Assembly (NCBI GenBank): GCA_020345725.1
Contig: CP070767.1
Location: 1,782,276-1,829,779, forward strand
Direction: 5' to 3'
From: Methanobacteriota archaeon
Lineage (GTDB): Archaea > Thermoplasmatota > Thermoplasmata > RBG-16-68-12 > SOIM01
DNA length: 47,504 nucleotides
Position numbers and translations under genes: made by a program. Below are positions 14,170-45,700 of the stretch, one piece after another (within the stretch, counting starts at the first letter, position 1; each line of letters begins with the position of its first letter). The notes under the pieces are model-generated. The model ran no database searches. It worked only from the letters and a program-made list of their open reading frames with translations, and was not told the DNA's origin.

Positions 14170-14327
14170 AGTGCACCTTTTTGTGTTATTTTATACGAGT
14201 GTTGCTATATAAGTATTTTCAATGCCTACGAATAGCCAAATCAATACAAATGGCTTTACAACAAAATATAAATAAACGGCGAAACATGACTTTAATTGTC
14301 ATTAATCTGACCTGGAGAGGTTATCCT

Positions 14328-20300: not shown

Positions 20301-21632
20301 ACCAATCACCCGCGGCCCACTTTACAGGTGGGTCTGGCGGATCCCACTAGAGGTGAGCTTGATTGGCGAACCATAGGCATATACCTTGACGGAGTGAACA
20401 TCACCTCCCAGTCCCTGATAAGTCTGCCATTTGGAGAATGGGAAGGTAAGTTTGGATATTGGGACGGAACAATCACCTACACTCCACCAGAAAGATTGGT
20501 GAATGGGATCCACACTCTAGATGTCAGAGTTGGAGATTTGACGGGTAATACTATCGATGCAAACTTCACATTTGTCATAGACACGCAACCCCCATTCATA
20601 AATCTCATAGGGCCTTCGATATACTCAACGCGCCAGCCTACAGCGATCGTCAGCGGTCAGACCGAGGCCGAGAAGAACGTCGTGATCAGAGAGCTGGAGC
20701 TGGTGGCAGATGAGAGCGGTTACTTCCAAGCAGAGATAGCGCTGGTAGAGGGAGAGAACCGGATAGATGTGACTGCCATAGACTGGTTCGGAAAGACCGT
20801 TGCAGGGGACATAGTCAGATCGAATCCAAATTCAGTGATACAGACCATCATCTACGATCTGGAGGACCCGGTCCTGACCGGAGTCAGATTCCAGGAAGGC
20901 ACCCTCACAAACCAAGATCATGGCACGTTGGGTGGAACAGTGGAGGAATACATAGCCGAAGGAACCACATACGACCCGAGGACTGTCACTCTGAAGATAA
21001 ACGGAGAAGAAGTGGAAATCCACTATAACGGGATGTTCAGCAGAGTATTGACCCTTAACGAAGGACATAACACCTTCCTCCTGGAGGCAACAGACGCGGC
21101 AGGGAACAGCGTATCAATGTACAAGAACATCACAAGGGACACGGCACCACCGTCCTTAATCCTTGACGAAGTACCATCCTCCACTGAGGATGCTGAAGTG
21201 GTAATCTCTGGAACTGTAGATCCGGGATCGATACTGACAATCAACGGCAAGTTCGTGAGCACGGCAGGCGGGACGTTCGAGGACACGGTGGCGTTGCAGC
21301 CTGGACCCAATGTGATTTACATGGAAGCGGCCGATTCCGCAGACAACGTCAGGAGCTTGCAGGTCGTCATTGTCAGAGAGACGGGAGACATTCTCCCTTA
21401 CATCATAATGGCGGTCCTCATAATAGTGGGACTGCTCCTTGGATACCTAGTCGGGTCGCGGATGAGAAGAGGGGAAATCGAACCCGGCGAGGAAGAGGTT
21501 GAGGAGGAGGTTCTGGCTGAGGAACCTACCGAAGAGGAAGCTGAGGAAGTCCTCGAGGCCGAGGCTCTGGTCGAAGAAGAAGACATGGTCGAAGTAGGAG
21601 CCCAGGAAGAATTGATAGAAGAAGAGGTTTGA
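14328..21632 (+). CDS. giant membrane-anchored subtilase-like surface protein with inserted WD40 propeller and Ig-like domains
   Basis: The start is chosen at ATG 14328 (GGAGAGG 8 nt upstream; signal peptide MAKDVRRQLWGAILAAVLMVLMTFSTLAAP). The track ORF start at 14181 is probably a spurious extension. S8 Asp motif VNVALIDTGIDLGHPDL (14703), His motif AEHGTAMASVIAAQG (17301) and Ser-region GSDISAASVTGVLAL (17895). Seven WD40-like blades lie at ~15421-16430. There are several DxxPP-initiated Ig-like modules. The C-terminus has a TM helix (ILPYIIMAVLIIVGLLLGYLVGS) and a Glu-rich tail. Confidence 0.85.
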   Translation: MAKDVRRQLWGAILAAVLMVLMTFSTLAAPSTPSISELEEDVDTILEEITPDMESEDAEISEKTIGPEMTDLEYPDVYYPSGLEMKEPLGDEPAETQSNGLLDYQGVQGAWAQGVNGSGVNVALIDTGIDLGHPDLIGTYAIDERVLGQVTNEVVVQGASSQGVDVANLAHDYVMNYAIKRNGTGMTEFADYTLYPGNGTIIFTPTLGSNMEITADYTYTSPYYGWPIAFDPVSMSNFLEQNHTRDTWFANTTQVGPGPFEYSHTLIVDGETEFGGTYEKWGTDPQEKSATLPGGNKEDFDLTSLNLTYDKDYWYVGFDTWMRVTTENASIEEFVPHALFGVMFDVDNETGGTTTVPEGKLIDTNTSHGDDVLDAEISPDGTMVATASRDGLVRIWFTSNATRIKTLYGHDASNPPFSVAWSPDSTKIASLSDDKLFVWNTLDWGNPWGKSATVSSSGDALGDYGIYGLASILDFSPNGTTVAYGGNNIGGVFRSVVNFYDYATGYSYHMVLSDGAEFVQSVAFNPSNADEIAANVIFHFIPPGTLIENDIGIYDLSTASLNTGTGTTVTVGTYLDGHSPNSIVNSVAWSPNGQRLVSGSEDNTVKVWLSDGTNIATINVGKIVTCVDWSPSPLNKIVYSTVRSGSPASALLATADENGNPIDSDSIRLDYYSAKWSPLAGDDLLVTASADFSARLWYDDFTLVRVLVAQKPDYALYVEGGGRWNQKDEKWEPGFNSTRFYTWNDATGWTYVVLSNLTTEQIEASQNWGGSQFIEVAIPRSLLGNPVSMAVEMFSAPHNDTHHAQDSVPEDRNVFDIPERGAEAKNGIDWLPIVTSLSTFTWKEIKYYYTNVSLSKSGVFHFGFHPSPHIIQKKGAVGVLVVDSKRPFDYDTVYVDLNIDNVFDSQDVILTRDSPTATVDEVLPLDGIPDTSAGIMYYMSDGFTPIPYSEKYTERRQATEQDFRNVIPLNGDMVAFIGEFFIDEDTGEKAEHGTAMASVIAAQGVIGATPDEKIMGVAPGAKFIILANTRDEIEHSWNFAVEGYDGKIATGDEAQIILNAFNYPRVVEKGWDRYSRKVDEMSMVYGKEKNIFVGPAGDYGWGYGTVASPNAAPGTVTVGRASDFSYWAGGLEGPNPHYGDVEISSSRGPTPVGISKPDVVAIGSGRIDIPLFNKMVSDGTTAKQLVPTKGSDISAASVTGVLALIYEAYKSKHGVIPTATEAKEILMSGADDISYDTLSQGAGFVNATRSVSIALGNGGLAVSPSTFSYGYFLGKRYPSFANILAAGDTDVKQFTLENSGSTPTSAVVSTTIFNNTGYYNFTTNNTVDTYATDGEIIFWINSSGVWKVKDEGMGVYNVTSQVTPYDASLWNNADLVKITAYSSYEMMVKLGGVSPTGRKTYVQNYSFTMKVYDWNNVSIDPFPNPEAYPTELNTIAEVHSEANYVLGVDPMTNYFEARIHDPAARIDDGLVVVIEPWDERPDEDYTWEILIETYEKVNWPWLNITPITPINIPASGQATFDATMRVPTNAMVGSYEGAITVADTGSGKNITIPILVNVAMNSPNVRFGGVNGTSDLYDNNRIFGGYEKGMRGSTRLARPYTGDWRFYYFNIPDAGFFKSAGLKLWIEGNWTLKPSDMDFYILGYRAPNENVTRYGPYYLGVLGKSEEAREPGFETNTNESSEVIAFDMKTGINVLALHGVILNGSKPFEFVFGGGGGWIQVTPPEIRERRSVRYGQKDLRIISNMDFTEGMTASAVGPAITESYREVEIEQDYQTWWQFDNWGEYLMRGSYTWIINVSNAYILDVHIVGDDKAPDLDLGVFTDENLDGELELEEVKDIYCVKIGGTKWDYDADADADERVVWIQPPDGQYIIKVLGFDINGKFGHFDIDIAITLGSGEEGYTIAGTGPDDIIIGTEGGLLRLTPVGVTMHWNLQGSTPPGEYGGAVMIGTPQAPTIVIVPVTIIYDPDPPEIISFALSATGYEIEVMTNRTTNHPRPTLQVGLADPTRGELDWRTIGIYLDGVNITSQSLISLPFGEWEGKFGYWDGTITYTPPERLVNGIHTLDVRVGDLTGNTIDANFTFVIDTQPPFINLIGPSIYSTRQPTAIVSGQTEAEKNVVIRELELVADESGYFQAEIALVEGENRIDVTAIDWFGKTVAGDIVRSNPNSVIQTIIYDLEDPVLTGVRFQEGTLTNQDHGTLGGTVEEYIAEGTTYDPRTVTLKINGEEVEIHYNGMFSRVLTLNEGHNTFLLEATDAAGNSVSMYKNITRDTAPPSLILDEVPSSTEDAEVVISGTVDPGSILTINGKFVSTAGGTFEDTVALQPGPNVIYMEAADSADNVRSLQVVIVRETGDILPYIIMAVLIIVGLLLGYLVGSRMRRGEIEPGEEEVEEEVLAEEPTEEEAEEVLEAEALVEEEDMVEVGAQEELIEEEV

Positions 21633-32889: not shown

Positions 32890-33942
32890 ATGAAATCGGA
32901 CTACACAACTGCAGAGAAGAAGGTTCTATATGGCCTGGTCAAGCATCCAACGCTCAATGACAGGGAATTGTCTGAGGCAATCGGCGTGAAACCATCCACA
33001 ACGACTGCCATTAGGAGACGTCTCAGAAAGGCGGAAGTATTCTCTACCAAGCGAATCCCGATGGCCGATAGACTGGGCTACGAGCTACTGGGCGTATTCT
33101 GCGGTAGGATGGGGCCAGGTACAAAAGATTCCGTCAAGAAGAAGTTCTTGGAAGCTGTTCACAACATGCCCCAGATCTTCTACACAATTGTGTCCTCGGA
33201 CAGTGTATTTGCAATTGGCTATTTCAAGAACTTCAGCGAATACAGGGCCTTTGCTGACGCTGCATGGGAGCAGTTCGGAGGATCAGCCGTGATTGAACCA
33301 GGCATGTGGTCCTGGGCCATATTCAGCTTTGAGAGGTCCAAGATTGCATACTTCTTCGATTATGGACCTCCTTTGAAGTACATTTTTAACATAAAGGAGA
33401 GAATGAAGTTCATGGAGTCAGCAGAAGAGCCTTCCTCGATTAAGTTGAGCAAGAAGGAGAAGGTAGTGCTTCAAGGGTTGGTGAACCTCCCAGAGTCATC
33501 AGACAAGGAAGTGGCTGAGAGAATAGGGGCATCCAGACAGGCAGTCTCGGCCATGAGAAAGAGATTCGAGAAGATGGGTGTGATGAAGACCCTCCGGGTG
33601 GTCAACTTGGAGAAGGTGGGATATCACCTGGTTGCGCTGGCACACAATCAATTCACTCCTCCAGCAACTCTCGAAGCTAGAAGAAAAGATCTAATGAAGA
33701 TCGCAGAGATGGTCCCCCAATTCTTGAGTGTGGTCAGCAACCCCGAGAGCATTCTTATGGCGTGTGCTACGAACTACGAGATGTATCACGAGGTCAGGAA
33801 TAGGGCCCTCAAATTGTATGCTGAAAAGGGATACCTGCGAGATGAACCCATGATGATGCTTTTCCCGCTTTCGGATACCCATACCATCAAGGACTTCGAC
33901 TTTGTGGGCTTCATGGAGAGGATTGTAGGAGAAGAGGAGTAG
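32890..33942 (+). CDS. double winged-HTH (Lrp/AsnC-like) transcriptional regulator, paralog 1
   Basis: 350 aa with an internal duplication. Unit 1: EKKVLYGLVKHPTLNDRELSEAIGVKPSTTTAIRRRLRKAEVFSTKRIPMADRLGYELL. Unit 2: EKVVLQGLVNLPESSDKEVAERIGASRQAVSAMRKRFEKMGVMKTLRVVNLEKVGYHLV. Each HTH is followed by a ~100-aa alpha/beta region. Confidence 0.65.
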   Translation: MKSDYTTAEKKVLYGLVKHPTLNDRELSEAIGVKPSTTTAIRRRLRKAEVFSTKRIPMADRLGYELLGVFCGRMGPGTKDSVKKKFLEAVHNMPQIFYTIVSSDSVFAIGYFKNFSEYRAFADAAWEQFGGSAVIEPGMWSWAIFSFERSKIAYFFDYGPPLKYIFNIKERMKFMESAEEPSSIKLSKKEKVVLQGLVNLPESSDKEVAERIGASRQAVSAMRKRFEKMGVMKTLRVVNLEKVGYHLVALAHNQFTPPATLEARRKDLMKIAEMVPQFLSVVSNPESILMACATNYEMYHEVRNRALKLYAEKGYLRDEPMMMLFPLSDTHTIKDFDFVGFMERIVGEEE

Positions 33943-34078: not shown

Positions 34079-35131
34079 ATGGCGTTAGATTTCACTTCCA
34101 CCGAGAAGATAGTCCTCTACGGCCTTGTGAAACATCCTACGCTCAATGACAGGCAACTGTCTGAACTAATCGGTGTGAAACCATCCACTACGACTGCCAT
34201 AAGGACACGTCTGAGGCAAAAAGATGTATTCCGCACAAAGCGGATACCAATCGCTCACAAGTTGGGATATGAACTGCTTGTGACCGTCTTTGGAAGTATG
34301 GAGCCTGGAGTGAAGGAGTCCGATAGGAAGAAGTTCTCGAAATGGATACGAGGAATCCCAGGTGTGTTCCTCTCCCTTGAATCATCGAACAGCATGTTCT
34401 TCACTGGCTACTTCAAGAACTTCAGCGAGTACAGGAGTGTTGCTGATGAAGCCTGGGAGAAGTTTGGCGAATCAACTCTATTCCAAACAGATAAGTGGTA
34501 TTGGCCCATGTTCAGCTTCGCAAGAAGCAAACTTGTGAACTTTTTTGACTACTCTTCGCCGCTGAGGTTCGCATTCAAGATAAAGGAGAAAGCAAAGGTT
34601 GAGCGAGAACGTGAGACGCTTTCCAAGGAAAGACTGACCAGAAAAGAGAGAACGGTTCTGCAGGGTCTGATCAACTATCCCGAGATATCTGACAAAGCCG
34701 TTGCCGAGAAGATAGGTGCATCCAGACAGGCCGTTGCGAGTATGAGAAAGAGATTCGAGGAAAAGGGAATCCTCCGTACAATCCGGATTGTGGACATGGA
34801 GAAGGTGGGCTATCAGATATTGGCTGTTGGAAGCATTCATTTTCAACCGAAAGCATCCCTAAATTCCAGGTGGATTGGAGTAGAGAGAACGGTGGAGACC
34901 GTTCCCATGATCCTGAATGTGGCAAGTAGTCCCGAGACAGTTGTGATGAGCTACATGAAGGACTATGAGGAATACCACGCGACCAAGAAGGAAGCATTGG
35001 AGTTCTATGCGAAGAGCGACTTCTACAGGGAGGAGCCTACCAGTTTGATATTCCCACTCTCAGATACTAAGATTACGAAAGATTTCGACTTCTCTAGATT
35101 CATGGAGAGATTCGTTCAAGAAGAAGACTAG
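34079..35131 (+). CDS. double winged-HTH (Lrp/AsnC-like) transcriptional regulator, paralog 2
   Basis: Also exactly 350 aa and collinear with 32890..33942 along the whole length, with long identical runs (VLYGLVKHPTLNDR, IGVKPSTTTAIR, GYFKNFSEYR, IGASRQAV, MRKRFE, FPLSDT, KDFDF). Confidence 0.65.
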   Translation: MALDFTSTEKIVLYGLVKHPTLNDRQLSELIGVKPSTTTAIRTRLRQKDVFRTKRIPIAHKLGYELLVTVFGSMEPGVKESDRKKFSKWIRGIPGVFLSLESSNSMFFTGYFKNFSEYRSVADEAWEKFGESTLFQTDKWYWPMFSFARSKLVNFFDYSSPLRFAFKIKEKAKVERERETLSKERLTRKERTVLQGLINYPEISDKAVAEKIGASRQAVASMRKRFEEKGILRTIRIVDMEKVGYQILAVGSIHFQPKASLNSRWIGVERTVETVPMILNVASSPETVVMSYMKDYEEYHATKKEALEFYAKSDFYREEPTSLIFPLSDTKITKDFDFSRFMERFVQEED

Positions 35132-38100
35132 GATAGCGTGTCGATGACAGAATCCACCTCTCTCTCCAGGAGTTTCAGTTGATTGGAGTCCAGGGTCGCG
35201 GGATTCACGTTCACTATCATCGTGGATTTGTTCATAGCAACCAAATCTCTGACGGACTGTAAAAGCCGAAGAACGATTATGAAGTTGTTGTTTGTGATCA
35301 GGTACTCCAGACCATCAAGTAGAACTACTCCACCAGTATCCGTCACGAATTTCTCCAGAGAGAGGCTGAGCTTCTCAAGATCCTTAGGTCTTACTGACTC
35401 CTCCTTCCCGATGTTGGATAACCATAGCAGGGTGGAATCGCCCATATCATGCATCTCAGTGACCTTATCTGGATATGTCCTTGTCACGCAAAGGCCTGGT
35501 CTGCCAGATTTCACCGTCGTGAGGAACATGTCGAATGCCCTCTCCGCCCTTTCTTCCTTGACCAAGTAGATGTGGGACGTTTCAAGTGCAACCTTCCCGA
35601 TCTCCTCCTCGAACGGTGGGACCTCAATCGCTTCCTCTGCTCCTACTTCGGCTTCGGAAATGGGTTCCTCTTCAGGGGCCTCCGCTTCTTCCTCGGTGAT
35701 GAAGACTGTACCGCACTGAGTACAATGAGTCGCATCTGCATTAGCTGGAGCATTGCAGAGGGGACAGACGAGTTCTTCCAGCCACTCCTCAAAGTAGACA
35801 GATATCTTCCGTGCCAGAGGAACGGTTATGCCCTCAATCTTAAGAAGCTCCTCTTCGGATGTGTTCGCCAGTGTATCCAGATCATAACCCAAGTTATTGA
35901 GCATCCTGGCTTTCTCCAGACCCAACCCGGGGATCTGCATTATCTCTTTCACCGCTTCCGAAATCTCTTCCTCTTCCTCCTTCTCAACCAGAGCAGAACC
36001 GCAACTATCGCATTCCTCAGCATCCAATGGAACCTGTGCTCCGCAACTGGGACACGCCTGCATCTCAGGCAGTAGAGAAGCACCGCAGCGATGACATTCT
36101 GTCGTTCCCATCTCGAGCTCTATCTCGCACACCGGGCACGTCATCTTCTCCTCGGCCCTCAGCTCTTCGGGCTGATCGAAGAATCTCCTAATCTTCCTGG
36201 CCTCGATCTCGTCAATCCCTTCAACTTGAACAAGCTCATCTATTGCCGCTTGCTGCAGTGAAAGTGGGCTGGCGTAACCAGCGTCAAAGAGAGACATTGC
36301 CTCCTTCTCATCTATTCCCGGAATGTTGGTGAATGCATCAATGGTCTGTTTCATGTAGAGCGGAGTGATAGCCAATCCTATGACCTCGCCTTCCACATTC
36401 CATTCCACTATGTACTCCTCAGTGAGCTCTTCCGGCACAAACTCAAAGCTCCTTGACCGAGTCTCAGTGGAAATGTAGTCCTCCCATTCCTCTAGCATCT
36501 TGGTGAGCTCCACCTTGACTTTGACCTGGGTTCTTATGAAATCCTCCACGTCCAGATCTATCTCCTTCCTCATCTGCTGGATTCTTCGCACGATTTCTCT
36601 CGAGAACCCCTCTGCCTTGATTTCTGGGGTTATTTCCATATCGATGTACAGGTCTCCTTGTTCAAAACCGATGCTAACCACATGCTCTGGGAGCCTTTCC
36701 GAGAATTCGACCATATCAGGTTCGATACGTATGACCTGGCCCTCTATGCCTATCTTGTAGACCCCTTTGTCGATGGCCTCTTTGACCTCATCGACGGGGC
36801 GACTTTCCAGCATAGTGGCAATCTTGCTCCACCACTGCTTGTAGACCCGTCCAATTGCTTCCACCTTCGGGCGGACGTTGAGGACCATACCATCCCAAGC
36901 CTCTCCAGGCCAAAGAACCTCGATCTCCTTGCTGTTCGTCTGGTCCATCAGGATTTCTTTCAGAGCCTCGACCGTCTTGGCCGTCTCTTCATCGTTAGCC
37001 TTCAAGACAATCTTCTTCACTGGCCATCGGAGCTTCATTCCCACCTTCTGCCTGGCCTTGGACACGAGCTCCACCAGTTCCTGGACGAGCGTCATTCTTT
37101 GTTCCAGTCTCTTATCTATCAATGACTCATCATAGGACGGCCAATCACACATGTGGACGGATAGCAATTCCGCGTCAAGGGATTGGTACATGGACTCCGA
37201 GATGTGGGGGGTCAGTGGAGCCAACACCTTTGCGATTGTGAGAAGCGATTCGTGCAGTGCCTTGTATGCACCGAACTTCTCTCTGGCATCGCCTTCAATC
37301 CAAGTTCTGTTGCGTATAAGCTTGATGTACCATCTGGATAGATCGTTAAGAATGAATTCTTCTACCGTTCTGCAGGCCTTGTGGATATTGAAGTCTTCAA
37401 TCTCGTTCTCGACCTTTGCCTTCAGTCCCTCTGTCTTCGAGAGCAGCCAATGATCTTCGGGTCTCATGCTTCCCGATAGTGAATCGATGGTCCAACTCGT
37501 GGGGTCGAACCCGTCCATTGCCATGTAGAGGGATCCGAACCTGTGAACATTCCAAAGGATGTTGAGTGTGCGGTTGGATGTACGGACATCCTCTTTGTTG
37601 AAATTCAGGTCTTCCCAGGGTGGATTGGTCTTCAGAAGGTAGAATCGCAGGGAATCCGCCCCGAACTCTTGAATGACATCGAAGGGGTCCACCACATTGC
37701 CGAGACTTTTTGACATGGGCTGACCCTTCAAATCTAGGATCCATCCGTGCATCAGAACGGCCTTGTAGGGAGACTCATCAAATGCAATCGTACCTGCAAC
37801 CAGAAGCGAATAGAACCAGCCTCGTGTCTGATCATGAGCCTCGGTAATCCACCTGCAAGGCCACCATTCCTTGTACTCCTTCTTCTTGGAAGGGTATTCA
37901 AGCTGGGCCCACATGCACACGCCTGAATCGAACCATACGTCCAGAACGTCGGGTGTTCTTCTCATCTCCGCACCGCATTCCTGGCAGTTGAAGGTGACAC
38001 TATCAATCCAGGGGCGGTGAAGGTCCATGTCATCGGTGTAGTTGTTCCCTTTGGAAAGGTCCTTGACCGAACCCACAATCAGTCTCTCCCCGCATTCACA

Positions 38101-39516
38101 ATCCCAGACCGGGACAGGTATGCCCCAATACCGCTGGCGTGAGATGCACCAGTCCCTGGCATTCTCTACCCAGTTCTTCTGCCTCGAGCTTCCTGCCCAA
38201 TCGGGGGTCCACTTGACCTTTTCCACTTCCTCAAGCATTATGTCCCGCACTTCAGTTGCTCTTATGAACCACTGGATTGAGGCCCGGTAGATAATTGGAG
38301 ATTTGCATCTCCAGCAGTGACCGTATCTGTGAGAGATCTTGCCATCATGAAAGAGCCACCTCTCCTTTCTAAGGTCGTCCATGATGAGACTGTTCGCTTC
38401 CCGGACGTGCTTGCCGAAATACTCTCCAGCATCTTCCGTGAAGTATCCACCTTCGTCCACGGGACAGAAGGGGGGAATCCCGTGTTCCTCGCCGACTTCG
38501 AAATCTTCCGGACCGTGTCCCGGCGCGATATGTACTACTCCTGTGTTCTCCTCGGTCACTATGTCCGAAGCAATGACTTTGTGAATCCACTCCCCCGTGA
38601 GCTGATTGTGATATGGGACCTTGGATGTCAGTGGATGGAAGTACTCCCAACCCACCAAGTCCGTTCCTTTCTTAATGTCAATTATCCTGAAATCCGTAGC
38701 ACCCACAAGAGAGGCCACCTCTTCCGCCCTATCCTTCATGAGCCAGAGGATCTCGTTCCTGTCCTCTATTGTCATCTCCACCTTAGCATACTCGAAATCC
38801 GGATGCACGGCAACAGCCATGTTCGCCGGCAAAGTCCAGGGCGTGGTTGTCCATATCAGAATGGCCTCTCCACCCCGTCCCTTCAGGAGGAACCTGACAA
38901 AGATGGAGTAGTCCTCCACATCTTCATATTCGATCTCGGCCTCAGCCAAGGCGGTCTCGCATCTGGCACACCAGGTAAGAACTCTAGTGTACTGTGTCAG
39001 AAGGTTCTTCTCATGGGCCTTCTTCAAGGTCCACCATGCCGCCTCGATGTAGCTGTTCCTTATCGTCAGGTAAGGATTGTCCCAGTCCATCCACACGCCA
39101 AGTGATGCGAACTGAGAGGTCATCCTGCCCTGGAGCTCGGAGGCAAATTCCCTGCAACTATTCACAAAGGACTCTATTCCGACCAGTTCCTCTATCTGCT
39201 TCTTATTGACAATGCTCAGCTTCTTCTCCACCTTGACCTCAATTGGGAGGCCGTGCATGTCAAAACCTGGCTGATCTCTCACGTTGAGACCTTGCATCCT
39301 CCTGTACCGGACTATCACATCCTTCAGGATTTTGTTGTAGGCAGTTCCCATGTGGATGGAGCCAGTTGTGTATGGTGGTCCGTCCACGAAGTAGTACTCC
39401 TTCCCTCTCTCTCTGTGAGATTTCGTCTTCTCATAGGCCCTTGAGAGCTTCCAAAAGTTTTGCACCTTTTTCTCCAATTCAACTGGAGAATACTCTTTCT
39501 CGGCTTGCTTTATCAT
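35128..39516 (-). CDS. ileS: isoleucyl-tRNA synthetase fused to a C-terminal HhH / zinc-ribbon / DUF835-like extension
   Basis: Start at ATG 39516 (GGGGGAGGATTGCG upstream). The track ORF runs on to 39744 across a tRNA gene, so that part is spurious. HIGH-type PPYTTGSIHMGTAYNK, KMSKS-type GQPMSKSLGN, the CP1 editing region, and the archaeal-type C-terminal domain. Then ~410 extra residues follow with no stop. Confidence 0.92.
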   Translation of the reverse strand: MIKQAEKEYSPVELEKKVQNFWKLSRAYEKTKSHRERGKEYYFVDGPPYTTGSIHMGTAYNKILKDVIVRYRRMQGLNVRDQPGFDMHGLPIEVKVEKKLSIVNKKQIEELVGIESFVNSCREFASELQGRMTSQFASLGVWMDWDNPYLTIRNSYIEAAWWTLKKAHEKNLLTQYTRVLTWCARCETALAEAEIEYEDVEDYSIFVRFLLKGRGGEAILIWTTTPWTLPANMAVAVHPDFEYAKVEMTIEDRNEILWLMKDRAEEVASLVGATDFRIIDIKKGTDLVGWEYFHPLTSKVPYHNQLTGEWIHKVIASDIVTEENTGVVHIAPGHGPEDFEVGEEHGIPPFCPVDEGGYFTEDAGEYFGKHVREANSLIMDDLRKERWLFHDGKISHRYGHCWRCKSPIIYRASIQWFIRATEVRDIMLEEVEKVKWTPDWAGSSRQKNWVENARDWCISRQRYWGIPVPVWDCECGERLIVGSVKDLSKGNNYTDDMDLHRPWIDSVTFNCQECGAEMRRTPDVLDVWFDSGVCMWAQLEYPSKKKEYKEWWPCRWITEAHDQTRGWFYSLLVAGTIAFDESPYKAVLMHGWILDLKGQPMSKSLGNVVDPFDVIQEFGADSLRFYLLKTNPPWEDLNFNKEDVRTSNRTLNILWNVHRFGSLYMAMDGFDPTSWTIDSLSGSMRPEDHWLLSKTEGLKAKVENEIEDFNIHKACRTVEEFILNDLSRWYIKLIRNRTWIEGDAREKFGAYKALHESLLTIAKVLAPLTPHISESMYQSLDAELLSVHMCDWPSYDESLIDKRLEQRMTLVQELVELVSKARQKVGMKLRWPVKKIVLKANDEETAKTVEALKEILMDQTNSKEIEVLWPGEAWDGMVLNVRPKVEAIGRVYKQWWSKIATMLESRPVDEVKEAIDKGVYKIGIEGQVIRIEPDMVEFSERLPEHVVSIGFEQGDLYIDMEITPEIKAEGFSREIVRRIQQMRKEIDLDVEDFIRTQVKVKVELTKMLEEWEDYISTETRSRSFEFVPEELTEEYIVEWNVEGEVIGLAITPLYMKQTIDAFTNIPGIDEKEAMSLFDAGYASPLSLQQAAIDELVQVEGIDEIEARKIRRFFDQPEELRAEEKMTCPVCEIELEMGTTECHRCGASLLPEMQACPSCGAQVPLDAEECDSCGSALVEKEEEEEISEAVKEIMQIPGLGLEKARMLNNLGYDLDTLANTSEEELLKIEGITVPLARKISVYFEEWLEELVCPLCNAPANADATHCTQCGTVFITEEEAEAPEEEPISEAEVGAEEAIEVPPFEEEIGKVALETSHIYLVKEERAERAFDMFLTTVKSGRPGLCVTRTYPDKVTEMHDMGDSTLLWLSNIGKEESVRPKDLEKLSLSLEKFVTDTGGVVLLDGLEYLITNNNFIIVLRLLQSVRDLVAMNKSTMIVNVNPATLDSNQLKLLEREVDSVIDTLS

Positions 39517-39607
39517 CGCAATCCTCCCCCTGGAGGTAAACCGGTGAGCCGCGAATTTGTCATCATCGCAACCCAGAGGTAGGACAGCGGTATGCTCAAT
39601 TTGACTT

Positions 39608-39612
39608 AAAAA
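39608..39612 (-). terminator. oligo-T tract downstream of tRNA-His
   Basis: The minus strand reads GGAAAGATTTTTAAG about 19 nt after the tRNA 3' end. Archaeal terminators are typically oligo-T runs. Confidence 0.3.
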
Positions 39613-39630
39613 TCTTTCCGACGATAGGAG

Positions 39631-39735
39631 GGCCGGGACCGAGAATTCCAACGTCATGGTGCGCCCAAGACGATTTTGAACTCGGGTCAAGGGATCCACA
39701 GTCCCTGAGGATAACCCAGCTACCCCACCCCGGCC
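39631..39735 (-). tRNA. tRNA-His (anticodon GTG) with a ~30-nt intron in the T-loop
   Basis: Hand fold of the minus strand.
- Acceptor: G-1 (39735), then GCCGGGG paired with TCCCGGC (39638-39632), and discriminator C73 (39631) opposite G-1.
- D-arm: U8, D-stem GGG/CCT, and a D-loop with A14, G18 G19 and A21.
- Anticodon arm: AGGGA-CTGTGGA-TCCCT, anticodon at 39699-39697.
- Variable loop: TGAC.
- T-arm: T-stem CCGAG (39685-39681) / CTCGG (39643-39639), enclosing 37 nt. These begin TTCAA and contain a stable hairpin, CGTCTTGG-GCGCA-CCATGACG.
The 105-nt gene equals a 75-nt tRNA plus 30 nt. Confidence 0.8.
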
Positions 39736-39757
39736 GCGGGACAAATAACCCCTTCAT

Positions 39758-39793: not shown

Positions 39794-42700
39794 CTATGAT
39801 TCTGCTTCAGCCAATTCCTTGAGGTAGATCACAATCTCTTCATCACCAAGCTGCAACGCAAGTGAGAAAGCGTCCTCGTCTCCCTCCCAGTCCACAGGAC
39901 GGTACTTGAAAGAAGTGCATCGGACTTCTGTGATTATGTCGTCCATCCAGTCCTCTAGAAGAGCCTTCAGCTCATCACTGATGCAAAGCCTGATCTCCAC
40001 GGGAGTCTCTTCCTCAAGACCTGCCTCTCGCTTGGTATTTGCAATCTCCTTAATGATCTCGCCTGCAACTCCCTCGGCCCATAGTTCCTCGGTCTGCCTC
40101 TTGTCCACCCAGACCTTCCCCTTATCAAACTCGTACTCGGCCACACGCTCAGGAACGGATATCTCATAGGACACCATTGTGGAATCGAGGATGACCTGTT
40201 GACCCTCTATCCCAACTGCATAGCTACCTTTGTCAAGTCCAGATTTTATCTTCCACGGGGATTGGGAATTGAGCAGCATCTCGATCTTCCTGCTCCACTG
40301 AGGATACTTCTCCTTGATCTTGTCGCTATTGACGGTTATCTCCAGGTCCAGTCCATCCCAATCTTCACCTGGCCCTAGAACTACCAGTTCCTTGGTCCTC
40401 AAGTGGTCCTGTAGCACTCTCTTGAAGTCGGAAATCATTGTGGCGGAGCTGTCGTCTACCGATTTTATCGCCACCAGCAAGAGGGGCATCTTCTTGTCTA
40501 GATCGATGTCCTTTCGTGCCTGAGATACGCACTGAACGATATCACTCAAGGTTGCTATGTGTCCTCTGAATTCTGGACTGTCGGCCAGATCACCCAGGTC
40601 CTCTATGAACTCTGGAGATAGCTGGACATCTGGAGAGACAACACCCACACCCAAGTCTCTTGGTGGGACACCATCGCCCATATCAGATATGAATTCCCAT
40701 GCAGTGTCCATATCTTCGGTTTCCACGACTTTCCTGGCTTCTTCGATAATCTGGTGCGCACCCTCCGCACCGAATGTGGCGGTAACGAGTGACGACTGCA
40801 GGGATTCAGTGATTGCTTCCTTCTTATCCGTCACAAATATGAGTTCCTTGACAAATTCGTCAATTCCCGACAGTTCGCTCATCAATCCGCTCCAGCTTTC
40901 CAGAATCTGTCCGAACTGATCTTCAATTCTGGCAATGACTTCCAGAACATGTAGGGGCAGTAACATCGGTTCCTGACCAACAACTACTGCTGCGACACTC
41001 ACATACTTCCCCCTTTCCAAGAGTATCTTGCTCTCACCGAAATCCAACCTCTTTAGGCCCACCTTCTCTTTACTTCGGAAGGAGTCCTGCACGAAATCCT
41101 GTACGACGGAGAGCATGCCACTGAAGACATCCTCATCAATCTCCTCACGATACTTCCTGGTCTCGTGGATTATCAATCTTCCATCCCTGTGAATAAGGAA
41201 AACGTCCTCAACGAGGTATGTCCCTTGGGATTCCACTGAGACATTCTTCAGGTCGTCCAGGCGATATTCCTTTTCATCGAAATACCTTTGATAGGAGATC
41301 TTCACATCAATGGGGATGTCCCCTTCCCTGGCAGGTTTCAAGCCGACCTCCACTTCCTTCTTCTCTTTGGCGTCTATGTGAGGTATCTCTTCCAGGCCTT
41401 TCACTTCGAACTCGCCTGAAAGGTCTATGTTTAGGTTCCTTGCAGCAATATTGCCTTCATTTGCTACCTCGAATGTGTATTTGTTCCACGCATCCGTCTG
41501 GAGACCTTTTCTCGGCAACTGCAACTTGATGTCCGGAACCTTGCCCTTGAGATAATCTCCAATCTTCTTGGTAGCTGAACTCTCTGCCCTCTCAATGATG
41601 GTCCTGAGATTCTCAACATCCTCCGGAGCCAACTGTTGGGCATCCCCGAGTATCTTCTCTGCATCGGTAACCTCTATCCCAATCGATCTTGCTCTTTCGA
41701 CCATGTCGCGAACCGAATCCAAGTATCCATCCACCTCAGTTGCAGATAGGAGGTTGCGAGCTTCCACAAGGAGCTTACCAATCTCTTCAAGCGAATCCTG
41801 TGCTGCTTTGTCATCTCCCTTGTCCAAAGCCTCTTCCGCCTGACTGATCTTCTGCTCAACCTCGGCCACATCGATGCCCAAATCCTTCGCCCTTTTAGTC
41901 ATCTGGTCGAACTCGCTCAGCTTTGTCTTGAGGACTTCCGAGGTCAGACTCTCCTCAGTCTTCTTCATCGACTCCCGGAACAACTCCAGATACTTTTCGG
42001 CAGATTCAAAGTCGTCAACCAATCTGGCATCTCTGGCCTTCATCATCAGTTCCCCAGCTTCGCCAGTATCGAAGCCTTGGTTCTGGAGTCTTGTCATGAG
42101 TTCCTTTGCCTTGTCCAGTTGGGTCGCAATTTCGAGTTCTAGTTTCTTGGACTTGGCATCTCCCACGACCCTGTCTATCTTCCTTACTATCGAGTTCACT
42201 TCCCTGGCATCGAACTCTTCGGCTGCTTTGTCTGCATCATCCAACATCAGCTCGGCCTCGTCGATCTCCAAGCCTTCTTTGATGGCTTCCTTGATGGAAT
42301 TCTGAGCCTGCACCAGGGCGTTCTCCAACTGTCCCCGTATTCTGGCCTTTGATTTGGACGCGCTATCTGCAGCATCTTCCACGAACTTCCAAGCAGACGC
42401 ATAATCTTCCTCTTCCAGCAGTTTCTTGGCCTTGTGTAACAGGTCCTGGGCCTGAGAGACATCCGCACCTGCTGCCTGAGCCTCCCTCAGCATTTGGAGC
42501 GTGGACGTTATGACGCTCTCTTCCAGTTCTCCGATGTCCGCCTCTTCATCATCGCTCACGAATATAATCTTCTTGACGATTTCCTCGACACCTTCCATCT
42601 CGCCCAACAGCCCGCTCCAGTTATCCAGCACATCAGCGTACTTCTCTTCGATCTCTTTGACAATCTCGGCCATATAAAGGGGAAGTAGGGAGGGTTCATC

Positions 42701-45700
42701 TCCGGTGAGAACGGTTGCTAGATAGATGTAAAAGCCTCTTTCAATCACTATCTTGTTGTCGCCGAAATCCAGTCTACTGAGGCTCGTGCTCGACCTAGTC
42801 TGAAAAGAGTCTCTGACGAACTCCTGCATCACAGTCAGCATTCCACTGAAAATGTCATCGTCCACATCCTCTCTGAATTCCCGCGTTTCATGAAGAATCA
42901 GCCTTCCGTCATTGTGAACCAGGAAGACGTCATCCACCAGATAGGTGCCCAGTCTGCTGATGTTCAGAGTGGCATCATCTTTTGATTCGAAATTGGTCTC
43001 GTCAAATGGTCTTTTGAAGGAAACCTTAACATCCACAGGAAGCTCACCGTCCTGTCTGGGTTTGAGACCCACCTCCATCTTCTTCTTCTCCTGTGGAAGT
43101 AGACTGGAAATCTTCCTGAGTCCTTTGACCTCGAAGTCTCCCTTGAGGCTTACGTTCACGTCCTCTGCAGTTGTGTTCCCTTCGTTGGTCACTTCAAGAG
43201 TGTATTTGTTCCAGACATCTGATTGGACAGCTCCAACAGGAAGATTGACCATGATCTTTGGATATTTGCCGCGAAGGAACTGCTCGACACGACCGCGAGC
43301 CAGATCTTCCGATTGCTCTATCAACCTCAGAGCGCTTTCATAGTCATGTTCTGCGAAACTCTCCTGGGCAGTCCGGAGCATGTCCTGCAGCTCTTCCGCC
43401 CCCATTCCTGCCTCATCCGATTTTTCAATCAAACGTGTGATCATCTTGCTCTTCTCAACGAATTGCTGGATGAGCTTCTTGGATCTGGATTCCCCGAGCA
43501 TCTCCTTTGCGGTATCGGTGAGCATGGTGACTATTCCATAGTCCTCGGTTTCGTACGCGTCCTCGGCTTTCTTAAAGACGATTTCCGCTTCAGCGATTTC
43601 CCCGAGTCCACTGGTCTTTGCTTCTCCAATCATAATCTGGACTTCTTCCATCTCTCTCCTTGCCCTGTCGCTCAAGAATAACTTCTCGGCCTCAATCAAT
43701 GATCCTCTGGCCATTTCAGCCAGATTATTGAATTTGGAGTATTCCTTTGTATCAATTGCTGCACTCGCCTCTTCAATAAGATCCTCTGCTTCATCCACAT
43801 GTGCTCCGGTGGACCTTGCCAGTTCGATCCCTTTGATGATCGAACCTATGTTCTCCTTTGCTTTCCTCTCAATCAACTTCTCGGTTTCTTCCAGCACTTT
43901 CTGTGCCATTCTTGCGTATTCGATAGATGCTTGGTACTTCCCCTCATCGAAGTAGGTCTTGGCAGTGTGGAGCATTTCCTCAACTTGAGGAGCGGACACA
44001 CCAATCTCCTTCATCCTGTCCAATGAAGATTCCAATGTGTGAATGAATTCCTCCGACCCTTCTCTCAAGGAGGCCATTATTTCCTGCCCGAGCTCCTCAA
44101 TCGTAATGACCGCTTTCTCAGCCTCTTTGAGCTTGCCTTGTTCTGTGGCAGTCTCGGCCTCTGAGAGAAGCTTTTCGGCCTCCGAGACATCTATGTTGGC
44201 CTTCCTAGCGTCATCCAAAAGAAGTCTGACCTTTCCGAGCCTATCCTCTATCTCCTTTCTCCTGGCTATTGCTTCCTCCGGCACCCGTCTCTCCACCATG
44301 CGGTGGGCCGCCTTTGCCCTCTCTATGGATTCCAAGAAACTCTCTTCGCCCAGTAGGTTCTCGGCCGCAAGCAAAGTCTCTTCAACGTCTTCTATGTCGA
44401 ACCCATGAGTCCTGGCATGCATCATAGAGGACTTCGCTTTGAGAAGCAAGTTTTTCGCTCTCTTCTTGGCGAGCCTCACAATCGATTCGAATCTCTCTAC
44501 TTCCTCCATTAGGCCCTCTGCCCTTTCAATATCGCCACTCTCGAACGACCTTTCAATCTTCACCATCATTTCTTCAAGCTCGGACGTATCTTCTCCGTAT
44601 TCCGAGATATCCCTCACGAGATTCCTAAGTCGGAGTATGCGGCGCTGAATCCTATTCTTGCGCTCCTCCAACTCCCAAGCCTGCATGTCCTTCTCCAACA
44701 ATTCCTGAAGATCCCCGACCTTGTCGCTCATTATGGCCCTCTTGAAGTTCTTCAGAAGTTCTTTGGCTCCTACGAGTTCCTTCCCACCCTTGCTTGCCTT
44801 CTCGATAAGTGTTCCAACAGCCCCGACCAGTAGCTCTGTTTCTCTCTTCTTCCTTTCCCTTACGATCCATCTTCGGTTCCTCGTGACCAGGTTCTGCATC
44901 TTGGAGTACTTACCTTCACTCATCGCCTTACTGGCCTCTTCCAAAAGGTCTTCTCCGGCCGAGGTGTCCACACCCATCGATCTTAGTTCTTCCAGATCCA
45001 TGCGGACACTCTGTAGCTTGTCCTCCATCTTCTTCTTGAGCTTGGCATCGGATATCGCTTTCTTCAGACGCCGGGAGAGTTTCTGGACATCTGCGAATCT
45101 CTCGTCCAGAACGGCTTCTCTAGCCTCATTTAGCAACTCCCTCGCCCGAGTCACATCGAGTTCCAGCTTCTCAGACTTCGTGATCTGGTCCCGCATCTTG
45201 TCGATAACATCCTCCACTCTCTTCCTCTTCTTGGCTCGTCTGATTGCATTACGGATATTCTTGACATTCTCGGAAACCTCACCGAAATTTCGATCTTCCA
45301 GCGATGTCTGAGCGGCATGGAGGAACTCCATTGCTTCCGAGATATCCGCACCCATTTCGTTTGCCTGGTCGACGAAAGGAATGACGTTCCCAATCATTCT
45401 CTGGGAACGGAAGAACCTCTTCGCTGCCATCGTCTCCGTTCTTGCCTCTCGAACTAGACCCGGGATCTCTTGGAAGCTGGCTGACTTGAGTGCATTCTCA
45501 GCTTTTCCTATCAGCTCTGACGATACGGACACATCAGCTCCCTGGGCTTTTGCATCCTTTATGAGCGCTTTTGCATTCCTGATCAGAGTCCGCATCCTTT
45601 TCTCTTTCTTGGCATCTGCGGTTTTCTTAGTGCCCTGTTTTTCTGAAGCACTATCTTTGCTATCTGTCTCCGACCGAGATTTTGCACTCAATTTGATCAC
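39794..45700 (-). CDS. giant (1968 aa) cytoplasmic helical-repeat protein with duplicated Ig-like + alpha/beta modules and an IleRS-C-terminal-domain paralog
   Basis: One uninterrupted ORF with a GTG start and GGAGAC 10 nt upstream (an alternative ATG lies at codon 36). No signal peptide or TM segment was seen. Domain order is given in the findings. Confidence 0.85.
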   Translation of the reverse strand: MIKLSAKSRSETDSKDSASEKQGTKKTADAKKEKRMRTLIRNAKALIKDAKAQGADVSVSSELIGKAENALKSASFQEIPGLVREARTETMAAKRFFRSQRMIGNVIPFVDQANEMGADISEAMEFLHAAQTSLEDRNFGEVSENVKNIRNAIRRAKKRKRVEDVIDKMRDQITKSEKLELDVTRARELLNEAREAVLDERFADVQKLSRRLKKAISDAKLKKKMEDKLQSVRMDLEELRSMGVDTSAGEDLLEEASKAMSEGKYSKMQNLVTRNRRWIVRERKKRETELLVGAVGTLIEKASKGGKELVGAKELLKNFKRAIMSDKVGDLQELLEKDMQAWELEERKNRIQRRILRLRNLVRDISEYGEDTSELEEMMVKIERSFESGDIERAEGLMEEVERFESIVRLAKKRAKNLLLKAKSSMMHARTHGFDIEDVEETLLAAENLLGEESFLESIERAKAAHRMVERRVPEEAIARRKEIEDRLGKVRLLLDDARKANIDVSEAEKLLSEAETATEQGKLKEAEKAVITIEELGQEIMASLREGSEEFIHTLESSLDRMKEIGVSAPQVEEMLHTAKTYFDEGKYQASIEYARMAQKVLEETEKLIERKAKENIGSIIKGIELARSTGAHVDEAEDLIEEASAAIDTKEYSKFNNLAEMARGSLIEAEKLFLSDRARREMEEVQIMIGEAKTSGLGEIAEAEIVFKKAEDAYETEDYGIVTMLTDTAKEMLGESRSKKLIQQFVEKSKMITRLIEKSDEAGMGAEELQDMLRTAQESFAEHDYESALRLIEQSEDLARGRVEQFLRGKYPKIMVNLPVGAVQSDVWNKYTLEVTNEGNTTAEDVNVSLKGDFEVKGLRKISSLLPQEKKKMEVGLKPRQDGELPVDVKVSFKRPFDETNFESKDDATLNISRLGTYLVDDVFLVHNDGRLILHETREFREDVDDDIFSGMLTVMQEFVRDSFQTRSSTSLSRLDFGDNKIVIERGFYIYLATVLTGDEPSLLPLYMAEIVKEIEEKYADVLDNWSGLLGEMEGVEEIVKKIIFVSDDEEADIGELEESVITSTLQMLREAQAAGADVSQAQDLLHKAKKLLEEEDYASAWKFVEDAADSASKSKARIRGQLENALVQAQNSIKEAIKEGLEIDEAELMLDDADKAAEEFDAREVNSIVRKIDRVVGDAKSKKLELEIATQLDKAKELMTRLQNQGFDTGEAGELMMKARDARLVDDFESAEKYLELFRESMKKTEESLTSEVLKTKLSEFDQMTKRAKDLGIDVAEVEQKISQAEEALDKGDDKAAQDSLEEIGKLLVEARNLLSATEVDGYLDSVRDMVERARSIGIEVTDAEKILGDAQQLAPEDVENLRTIIERAESSATKKIGDYLKGKVPDIKLQLPRKGLQTDAWNKYTFEVANEGNIAARNLNIDLSGEFEVKGLEEIPHIDAKEKKEVEVGLKPAREGDIPIDVKISYQRYFDEKEYRLDDLKNVSVESQGTYLVEDVFLIHRDGRLIIHETRKYREEIDEDVFSGMLSVVQDFVQDSFRSKEKVGLKRLDFGESKILLERGKYVSVAAVVVGQEPMLLPLHVLEVIARIEDQFGQILESWSGLMSELSGIDEFVKELIFVTDKKEAITESLQSSLVTATFGAEGAHQIIEEARKVVETEDMDTAWEFISDMGDGVPPRDLGVGVVSPDVQLSPEFIEDLGDLADSPEFRGHIATLSDIVQCVSQARKDIDLDKKMPLLLVAIKSVDDSSATMISDFKRVLQDHLRTKELVVLGPGEDWDGLDLEITVNSDKIKEKYPQWSRKIEMLLNSQSPWKIKSGLDKGSYAVGIEGQQVILDSTMVSYEISVPERVAEYEFDKGKVWVDKRQTEELWAEGVAGEIIKEIANTKREAGLEEETPVEIRLCISDELKALLEDWMDDIITEVRCTSFKYRPVDWEGDEDAFSLALQLGDEEIVIYLKELAEAES
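40826..41545 (-). repeat. intragenic duplicated module B (aa 1386-1625 of the giant protein)
   Basis: Collinear with module A over ~240 aa, with shared blocks WNKYTFEV.NEGN, FEVKGL, EVGLKP, GTYLVEDVFLIHRDGRLIIHETR, DVFSGML, QDFVQDSF, RLDFGE and WSGL. Confidence 0.8.
42551..43270 (-). repeat. intragenic duplicated module A (aa 811-1050 of the giant protein)
   Basis: See module B. Roughly half or more of the residues are identical by eye. Confidence 0.8.

Follow-up and report, generated by a model that had tools for sequence, protein, structure and literature searches.

Introduction

Modules of aminoacyl-tRNA synthetases (aaRSs) are known to be reused outside the enzyme, as free-standing proteins or recruited domains (e.g., Trbp111/Arc1p/EMAP-II-type tRNA-binding domains, AlaX, YbaK/ProX and HisZ), and such accessory modules often keep their tRNA affinity without catalysis. 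The described cases are built on OB folds, editing domains or paralogs of the catalytic core. The case presented here differs from them in fold as well as in its host, a structural protein of ~2,000 amino acids (aa) encoded in a 47,504-nucleotide (nt) stretch of the genome of a Methanobacteriota archaeon (Thermoplasmatota; Thermoplasmata; GenBank assembly GCA_020345725.1, contig CP070767.1, positions 1,782,276 to 1,829,779), the whole of which is hereafter called the window. This protein, the giant, ends in a copy of the terminal tRNA-binding region of isoleucyl-tRNA synthetase (IleRS). The reuse of synthetase domains is already known; the presence of the IleRS clamp in giant scaffolds, and the family of these proteins, are new.

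Chen et al. 2024 (PMC11685878) recognise three parts in the IleRS region past the helical bundle, C-ter A, C-ter B and C-ter C, which Modrusan et al. 2026 (bioRxiv 10.64898/2026.02.03.703510) name ARD2, INS and ARD3. According to both studies, ARD2-INS-ARD3 clamps the anticodon arm and the elbow of the tRNA, the wobble base (N34) is read by ARD3 (yeast Q996/R999/K1000/L1004; P. megaterium Q961/R964/K965/L969), and A35/U36 are read by the ARD1 bundle upstream of ARD2; INS touches the tRNA elbow, G19/U20, in the solved complexes (PMC11685878). In the literature searched, we found no report of IleRS ARD2-INS-ARD3 outside a synthetase and no mention of DUF5915 (PF19302), the Pfam family that matches this region.

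We propose that the giant belongs to a Thermoplasmata family of scaffold proteins in which an old copy of the IleRS clamp serves as an RNA-binding end-piece, and we estimate the probability of this statement as a whole at about 45%. Its descriptive and evolutionary part taken alone (the family, its architecture, an old single origin and selection on the copy) is highly probable.

A giant protein that ends in a copy of the IleRS clamp

The giant and its parts are laid out as follows.

39794..45700, minus strand: giant open reading frame (ORF), 1968 aa, GTG start
43301..45595, minus strand: N-terminal helical-hairpin repeats, residues 36-800, period ~63-66 aa
42476..43300, minus strand: module 1, residues 801-1075, Ig-like CARDB followed by a longin/roadblock-like domain of ~130 aa
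41561..42475, minus strand: second stretch of helical repeats, in the middle of the protein (residues 1076-1380), with some five units of 65-66 aa each
40721..41560, minus strand: module 2, residues 1381-1660, CARDB plus longin/roadblock-like domain (beta-beta-alpha-beta-beta-beta-alpha; mean predicted local distance difference test score, pLDDT, of the model 75.7)
39797..40567, minus strand: DUF5915 domain at the C-terminus (residues 1712-1968), copied from archaeal-type IleRS and spanning the last ARD1 helix, ARD2, INS and ARD3
40184..40336, minus strand: INS (C-ter B) of the copy, residues 1789-1839, with the giant-specific SQxPWKIK; best conserved part
39815..40096, minus strand: ARD3 (C-ter C) of the copy, residues 1869-1962, with an altered N34-pocket motif, KEIANTKREAGL in the giant

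An earlier note on this DNA had described giant residues 1712-1968 (nt 39797-40567) as a paralog of the C-terminal domain of an IleRS encoded nearby, and both its coordinates and its peptide pairs are right. A single collinear BLASTP alignment joins the C-terminal 300 aa of the giant to the resident IleRS (query 47-298 / IleRS 809-1062) with 80/260 identical positions (31%), 55% positives, 139 bits and a highly significant E=8e-41, and DUF5915 is matched by residues 120-267 of the same 300-aa segment (42.3 bits vs. a gathering score of 27, E=8e-11). The predicted fold agrees: giant residues 1701-1968, as modelled by AlphaFold2 (pLDDT 88.4), have strong Foldseek matches in the PDB only to solved IleRS C-terminal tRNA-binding regions, including Priestia megaterium IleRS2 (8c8v, E=3.8e-16, TMq 0.62) and the yeast IleRS-tRNA complex (8wnd_A, E=8.8e-14). 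These results confirm that the last ~260 residues of the giant represent an old and diverged duplicate of the IleRS tRNA-binding C-terminus.

The copy runs from the last ARD1 helix to the exact end point of canonical IleRS and thus comprises the whole terminal clamp without ARD1, that is, the module that the note had placed beyond the anticodon-binding helical bundle. It resembles IleRS ARD2-INS-ARD3 (PF19302; 8wnd, 8c8v) in sequence, predicted fold, subdomain order and end point, and INS boundaries could be transferred by alignment from yeast ScIleRS (V897-N948). It differs in having neither a synthetase core nor an ARD1 bundle in cis: in a Pfam scan the giant gave no match to Anticodon_1 or tRNA-synt_1, and in place of the class Ia core with editing domain that defines an isoleucyl-tRNA synthetase (TIGR00392) it shows only a weak local match to MupA residues 787-979. 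The description of the host as non-enzymatic therefore holds with respect to the synthetase catalytic and Anticodon_1 domains.

The giant as a whole is predicted to be soluble, with an isoelectric point (pI) of 4.8 and a Kyte-Doolittle hydropathy of at most 1.6 in every 19-residue window; no transmembrane segment was found in this hydropathy scan, and the N-terminus is not signal-like. A cytoplasmic location also fits the zinc ribbon with which some relatives begin. CARDB (PF07705) is detected in two stretches (43.7 bits vs. a gathering score of 22.7), and the helical repeats gave no significant match in Pfam, NCBIfam or PDB sequence searches.

Distribution of the family

An exhaustive phmmer search with the 300-aa segment over 1.84e9 representative proteins returned 313 matches (a word-indexed single-sequence protein search found just 2, so that the exhaustive search was needed), and the best 150 of the 313 were classified by phmmer probes taken from the window. 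Among these 150 there are at least 22 full-length giants of 1,500-2,400 aa, mutually diverged to less than 50% identity, and all 22 have the identical order of ~65-aa helical repeats, 1-3 CARDB plus longin/roadblock-like modules and a terminal DUF5915, an order kept also by many of the fragments among the classified matches. A metagenome scan with a 5-sequence alignment led to 80 fetched loci, which share this architecture and in which the giant ORFs, where listed, measure 2,385-2,737 aa. DUF5915 is present and C-terminal in every family member found. Across five GTDB genomes of the window's sublineage (L001-L005) and 80 contigs that stem from metagenomes of many samples, the ORF is unbroken and has an identical end point. 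All named matches come from metagenome-assembled genomes (MAGs) of Thermoplasmata, Thermoplasmatota or Methanomassiliicoccales and are annotated as hypothetical or "DUF5915 domain-containing" proteins.

DUF5915 also occurs in this lineage in other non-synthetase proteins, joined to nucleic-acid-binding domains of the SAP, HhH and zinc-ribbon types. In one Thermoplasmata group (P0089, P0098, P0122, P0092), two or three SAP domains accompany a partial DUF5915 (ARD2 plus INS), and P0092 carries a CARDB/roadblock-like module in addition. In another group (P0086, P0113, P0139, P0150, P0102; ~930-1,090 aa), the IleRS catalytic domain is reduced to remnants while Anticodon_1, DUF5915, HhH and the zinc ribbon are retained, as is DUF835 in all but P0102; as judged by sequence, these are likely pseudo-synthetases.

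Age and origin of the copied domain

In a neighbor-joining (NJ) tree built from 124 DUF5915 domains, those of giants form one clade among the domains of IleRSs with a C-terminal DUF835, and canonical IleRSs lie outside; indeed, nearly all of the true IleRSs nearest to the giants' domain are DUF835-tailed. Bootstrapping (200 replicates, 108 classified sequences) supported the giants' clade at 87% and placed local giants and local IleRSs in separate clades with 100% support each, the window's giant and resident IleRS domains being grouped in 0/200 replicates. From the single clade and the missing local pairing it follows that the duplication is old and family-wide, and the 3-kb distance between the two copies says nothing about origin. 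The tree shows a recruitment that took place once and early, long before the window's lineage, from within the DUF835-tailed IleRS lineage. Thus, the earlier suggestion of a duplicated and recruited module stands as regards the copying of an IleRS domain, and the implied link to the ileS gene 3 kb away is not supported.

Selection and residues in the copied domain

Between the window and L001, the copy has a nonsynonymous divergence (dN) of 0.148 and a saturated synonymous divergence (dS), so that only dN itself and the inequality dN << dS are usable; this inequality places the copy under purifying selection. The giant's domain retains 77%/66% identity to L001/L003 vs. 95%/83% for the IleRS domain, and its nonsynonymous change is ~5x faster.

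A column comparison of 39 giants with 69 IleRS domains revealed 43 columns conserved in both, mostly in the hydrophobic core. Among the shared columns is the equivalent of the central ARD3 residue R999 of ScIleRS, an Arg in 33 of the 39 giants and a Lys in the other 6; the Arg with a structural role in ARD2 (R838 in yeast) is likewise retained as R1729 of the giant (R27/K12 of 39). The N34 pocket, Q-x-x-R-K-x-x-x-L, is not intact: its Gln is found in 0/39 giants, its Arg is kept in 33 and replaced by Lys in 6, and its Lys is kept in 15/39. The window giant has A-x-x-K-R-x-x-x-L there, the 12-letter IleRS pocket motif being replaced by the one given above with the key Arg changed to Lys. Eight giant signature positions are conserved at 82-97%, three of which lie in the INS motif SQxPWKIK. 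By mean pairwise identity, INS is the best conserved subdomain in giants (0.48) and in DUF835-tailed IleRSs (0.48), and the least conserved one in canonical IleRSs (0.26). Such a pattern of residues makes it unlikely that the isoleucine-anticodon pocket is intact and is compatible with retained binding of the tRNA elbow.

Longin/roadblock-like modules and a possible link to small GTPases

The ~130-aa domain after CARDB is, by its model, of the longin/roadblock-like fold: DSSP assigns strands at 122-129 and 134-139, a helix at 148-167, three strands within 175-199 and a helix at 206-226, i.e., the beta-beta-alpha-beta-beta-beta-alpha core of roadblock/longin alpha/beta domains. Foldseek relates it to AP-1/AP-2 sigma (TMt 0.57-0.67), zeta-COP, MglB and TRAPP, and relates the Ig plus alpha/beta pair to the AP2 alpha appendage (E=7e-6, with low TM-scores). 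The modules are thus similar in predicted fold to known longin/roadblock platforms and adaptin appendages, and differ from them in that neither copy has a Pfam match at E<=10, the Robl_LC7/longin families included, NCBIfam and PDB searches by sequence likewise yielding no significant match, and in that the global TM-scores on the query are 0.2-0.3. A further difference is that the domain is shared with bacterial and archaeal proteins (P0182-P0197) in which it is fused to OmpA, HisKA_3/HATPase_c, a HerA-type ATPase, SH3 or TPR.

In one giant subclade (P0068/P0079), a small-GTPase gene lies next to the giant. At four loci, an Arf/Ras/Roc-type GTPase of 276-287 aa is encoded 55-100 nt downstream of the giant on the same strand, and clustering at 50% identity splits the four adjacent giants into two groups.

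L086, 4717-5580: Arf/Ras/Roc GTPase gene, with a ~100-aa C-terminal extension
L088, 10848-11699: Arf/Ras/Roc GTPase gene, with a ~100-aa C-terminal extension
L090, 10687-11517: Arf/Ras/Roc GTPase gene, with a ~100-aa C-terminal extension
L091, 10101-10931: Arf/Ras/Roc GTPase gene, with a ~100-aa C-terminal extension

In the mechanism proposed below, the partner of the modules in this subclade would probably be the GTPase encoded directly downstream. Together, the modules and this gene suggest, by association only, that the scaffold works with small GTPases.

Resident ileS, its DUF835 tail and the intervening tRNA gene

Downstream of the giant, on the same strand, lie a tRNA gene and ileS.

39631..39735, minus strand: tRNA-His(GUG) gene, G-1:C73, with a ~30-nt insertion/intron in the T-loop (~39644-39673), between the giant gene and ileS
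35128..39516, minus strand: ileS (1462 aa, start codon ATG at 39516; ORF as listed 35128..39744)
36337..37116, minus strand: ARD2-INS-ARD3 of the IleRS itself, the paralogous segment, residues 801-1060
35131-36336, minus strand: C-terminal extension of the IleRS, 400 aa, with HhH_5, double zinc ribbon, HhH_2 and DUF835

As listed, ileS starts at a TTG, 76 codons before the real ATG, which is preceded by GGAGG at 8 nt; the upstream open frame (39744-39517, minus strand) is non-coding, since it crosses the tRNA-His gene and a promoter-like region, and IleRS residues 885-1129 of the earlier note accordingly become 809-1053. The product is a bona fide isoleucyl-tRNA synthetase (TIGR00392, 962 bits at a cutoff of 621) with the domain order class Ia core (tRNA-synt_1), Anticodon_1, DUF5915 (PF19302 match at residues 855-1051), HhH, double zinc ribbon, HhH and DUF835. 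Its tail gave weak HhH matches to RadA and Hel308 only when compared with the PDB by sequence. DUF835 has been classed as an inactivated KaiC (iKaiC) (Galperin et al. 2018, PMC5847659). Among the nearest relatives there are ~30 clusters of DUF835-tailed IleRS at 50% identity, and the fusion is therefore lineage-wide; the literature searched contained no account of it or of other IleRS fusions in Thermoplasmata.

The giant is followed by ileS-DUF835 in the window and in L001-L005. In these six sequences, the two genes are separated by a 280-nt spacer that is conserved at 89% identity. The spacer holds the tRNA-His gene, which was not called by ARAGORN or by Rfam at the gathering threshold and is detected as a sub-threshold Rfam tRNA match (21.5 bits); with the insertion deleted from the spacer, ARAGORN calls tRNA-His. 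The insertion forms its own hairpin in the minimum free energy fold, with no textbook bulge-helix-bulge, and the base-pair changes that distinguish window/L001 from L002-L005 in the anticodon stem and the hairpin of the insertion look compensatory by eye. TATA-like elements, also read by eye, precede tRNA-His and ileS. With this gene and these elements in the spacer, the giant gene and ileS are, by their sequence features, separate units. A regulatory leader in the spacer was considered and rejected, the intron-containing tRNA-His gene explaining its conservation.

The proximity to ileS emphasized by the earlier note thus proved to be neither direct, an independent tRNA gene intervening, nor a feature of the family, being limited to the window's sublineage. 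No IleRS core and no DUF835 were found within 10 kb at the 80 fetched metagenome loci, and ileS was not found within 6-10 kb of the giants of the P0068/P0079, P0034 and P0031 subclades (the P0034 and P0031 loci have neither ileS nor an Arf/Ras-like GTPase gene). A conserved operon with ileS was accordingly rejected, and the adjacency is most likely incidental. At 6 of the 12 metagenome loci with ORFs listed, a ~340-aa ORF lies directly downstream of the giant, and the two that were scanned are both FEN1 flap endonucleases.

On the other side of ileS and convergent with it, the window contains two 350-aa ORFs (32890-33942 and 34079-35131, plus strand), apparent tandem paralogs, each with winged-helix Pfam matches (HTH_24, MarR, TrmB) near residues 1-50 and 186-240; ORFs of equal size lie downstream of ileS in L001 and L003-L005.

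Proposed function and alternative explanations

The giant is a scaffold, predicted to be soluble, with a long helical-repeat rod that bears CARDB and longin/roadblock-like modules and ends in the IleRS-derived clamp. In the proposed mechanism, the terminal DUF5915 would grip tRNA-shaped RNA via the elbow-binding INS and the retained central Arg/Lys, the scaffold thus tethering either tRNA or some tRNA-like RNA to assembly partners of the longin/roadblock modules. The isoleucine anticodon would no longer be read, because ARD1, the reader of A35/U36, is absent and the IleRS-specific Arg/Arg/Gln near the N34 pocket are lost. The missing ARD1, the degraded surroundings of the pocket and the strongest constraint on INS point to such shape-based binding of tRNA or other RNA, which we advance tentatively, as a possibility somewhat short of an even chance.

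Several observations weigh against this reading. To our knowledge, there is no demonstrated case of tRNA binding by ARD2-INS-ARD3 on its own, and within IleRS it works by clamping against the body of the enzyme. The giant motif residues Q1813, W1816 and K1817 could equally form a protein interface, and the window's copy is very acidic, with a net charge of -26 (in net charge and pI, giants are not separable from IleRSs, all of which are acidic). Ten columns conserved in IleRS are not conserved in giants, including five basic/Gln positions of ARD2/ARD3 around the anticodon-loop pocket (R830, R973, R977, R978, Q980) and an INS Pro (P883, at or beside yeast P901); at R973, R977 and R978, Arg/Lys is retained in 21-33% of giants, and the RR before the pocket motif is not conserved. 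The retained Arg has a structural role too, so that its conservation is no proof of RNA contact (PMC11685878). The Arf/Ras-like GTPase gene is confined to one subclade, none being present in the window or at 85 other loci, and the trees are distance-based NJ trees of 250 columns.

Some of these observations would be expected if the copy bound a protein instead of RNA, either the IleRS body through the clamp-packing surface, which might recruit IleRS to the scaffold or regulate it there, or another partner through SQxPWKIK. The loss of IleRS-specific basic/Gln residues at the anticodon pocket together with the gain of eight giant-specific positions, as well as the acidity of the domain, speak for such docking, as does the interaction-type tail (HhH, zinc ribbons and DUF835/iKaiC; PMC5847659) of the lineage's own IleRS and of nearly all the closest IleRS relatives of the giants; in eukaryotic IleRS, moreover, C-terminal add-ons mediate protein-protein assembly (Foldseek match 7wrs; PMC9643514). 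We nevertheless consider protein docking, the main rival, somewhat less likely than RNA binding, given that the most conserved part of the copy, INS, binds the RNA elbow in every solved complex and that adjacency to ileS is found in a single sublineage and with a tRNA gene in between. Far less probable is a functionless relic, i.e., the decaying leftover of a gene fusion or a MAG misassembly: the ~5x faster nonsynonymous change would suit decay, but dN stays far below saturated dS, the ORF is unbroken with an identical end in each of 5 GTDB genomes and in 80 contigs from metagenomes, the domain is always present and always terminal, and the giant-specific positions are 82-97% conserved. A recent local duplication, by which the resident ileS, 3 kb away, would have given rise to the giant C-terminus and formed a functionally coupled cassette with the giant gene, draws on the shared strand and the ~280-nt distance between the genes in the window and L001-L005. 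This explanation is refuted by the phylogeny (a single clade of giants encompassing at least 22 full-length members diverged to <50% identity, and 0/200 replicates for the local pair) and retains next to no probability; the identity of just 31% between copy and resident IleRS, the absence of ileS within 6-10 kb of the giants at the 80 metagenome loci and in three other subclades, and the conserved, TATA-flanked tRNA-His gene between the two genes are further points against it.

The clamp is an invariant end-piece of a large family of giant archaeal proteins, common in the environment and widespread in soil and sediment Thermoplasmata. If tRNA binding is retained, these would be the first large structural archaeal proteins that tether tRNA, and the family would separate the parts of the clamp needed for shape recognition from those needed for anticodon recognition; if it is not, the family would provide a clean case of an RNA-binding fold repurposed. 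A broader picture, in which the tRNA(Ile)/IleRS system is wired into a lineage-specific machine composed of giant coiled-coil scaffolds that act with small GTPases and bear both longin/roadblock modules and an elbow-binding clamp, the housekeeping IleRS with its HhH/zinc-ribbon/iKaiC output domains, and degenerate IleRS paralogs and SAP proteins in which the clamp is used again, seems improbable at present. If true, such a machine would localise or sense tRNA or IleRS and would represent a prokaryotic analogue of a multi-synthetase/tRNA-channelling scaffold with GTPase signalling.

Other genes of the window

Two further large genes were noted in the window. An ORF of 2,483 aa (14181-21632, plus strand) combines WD40 repeats, a subtilase domain and Ig-like/glucodextranase-B domains, and a second subtilase-domain protein of 1,335 aa is encoded at 8405-12412 on the minus strand.

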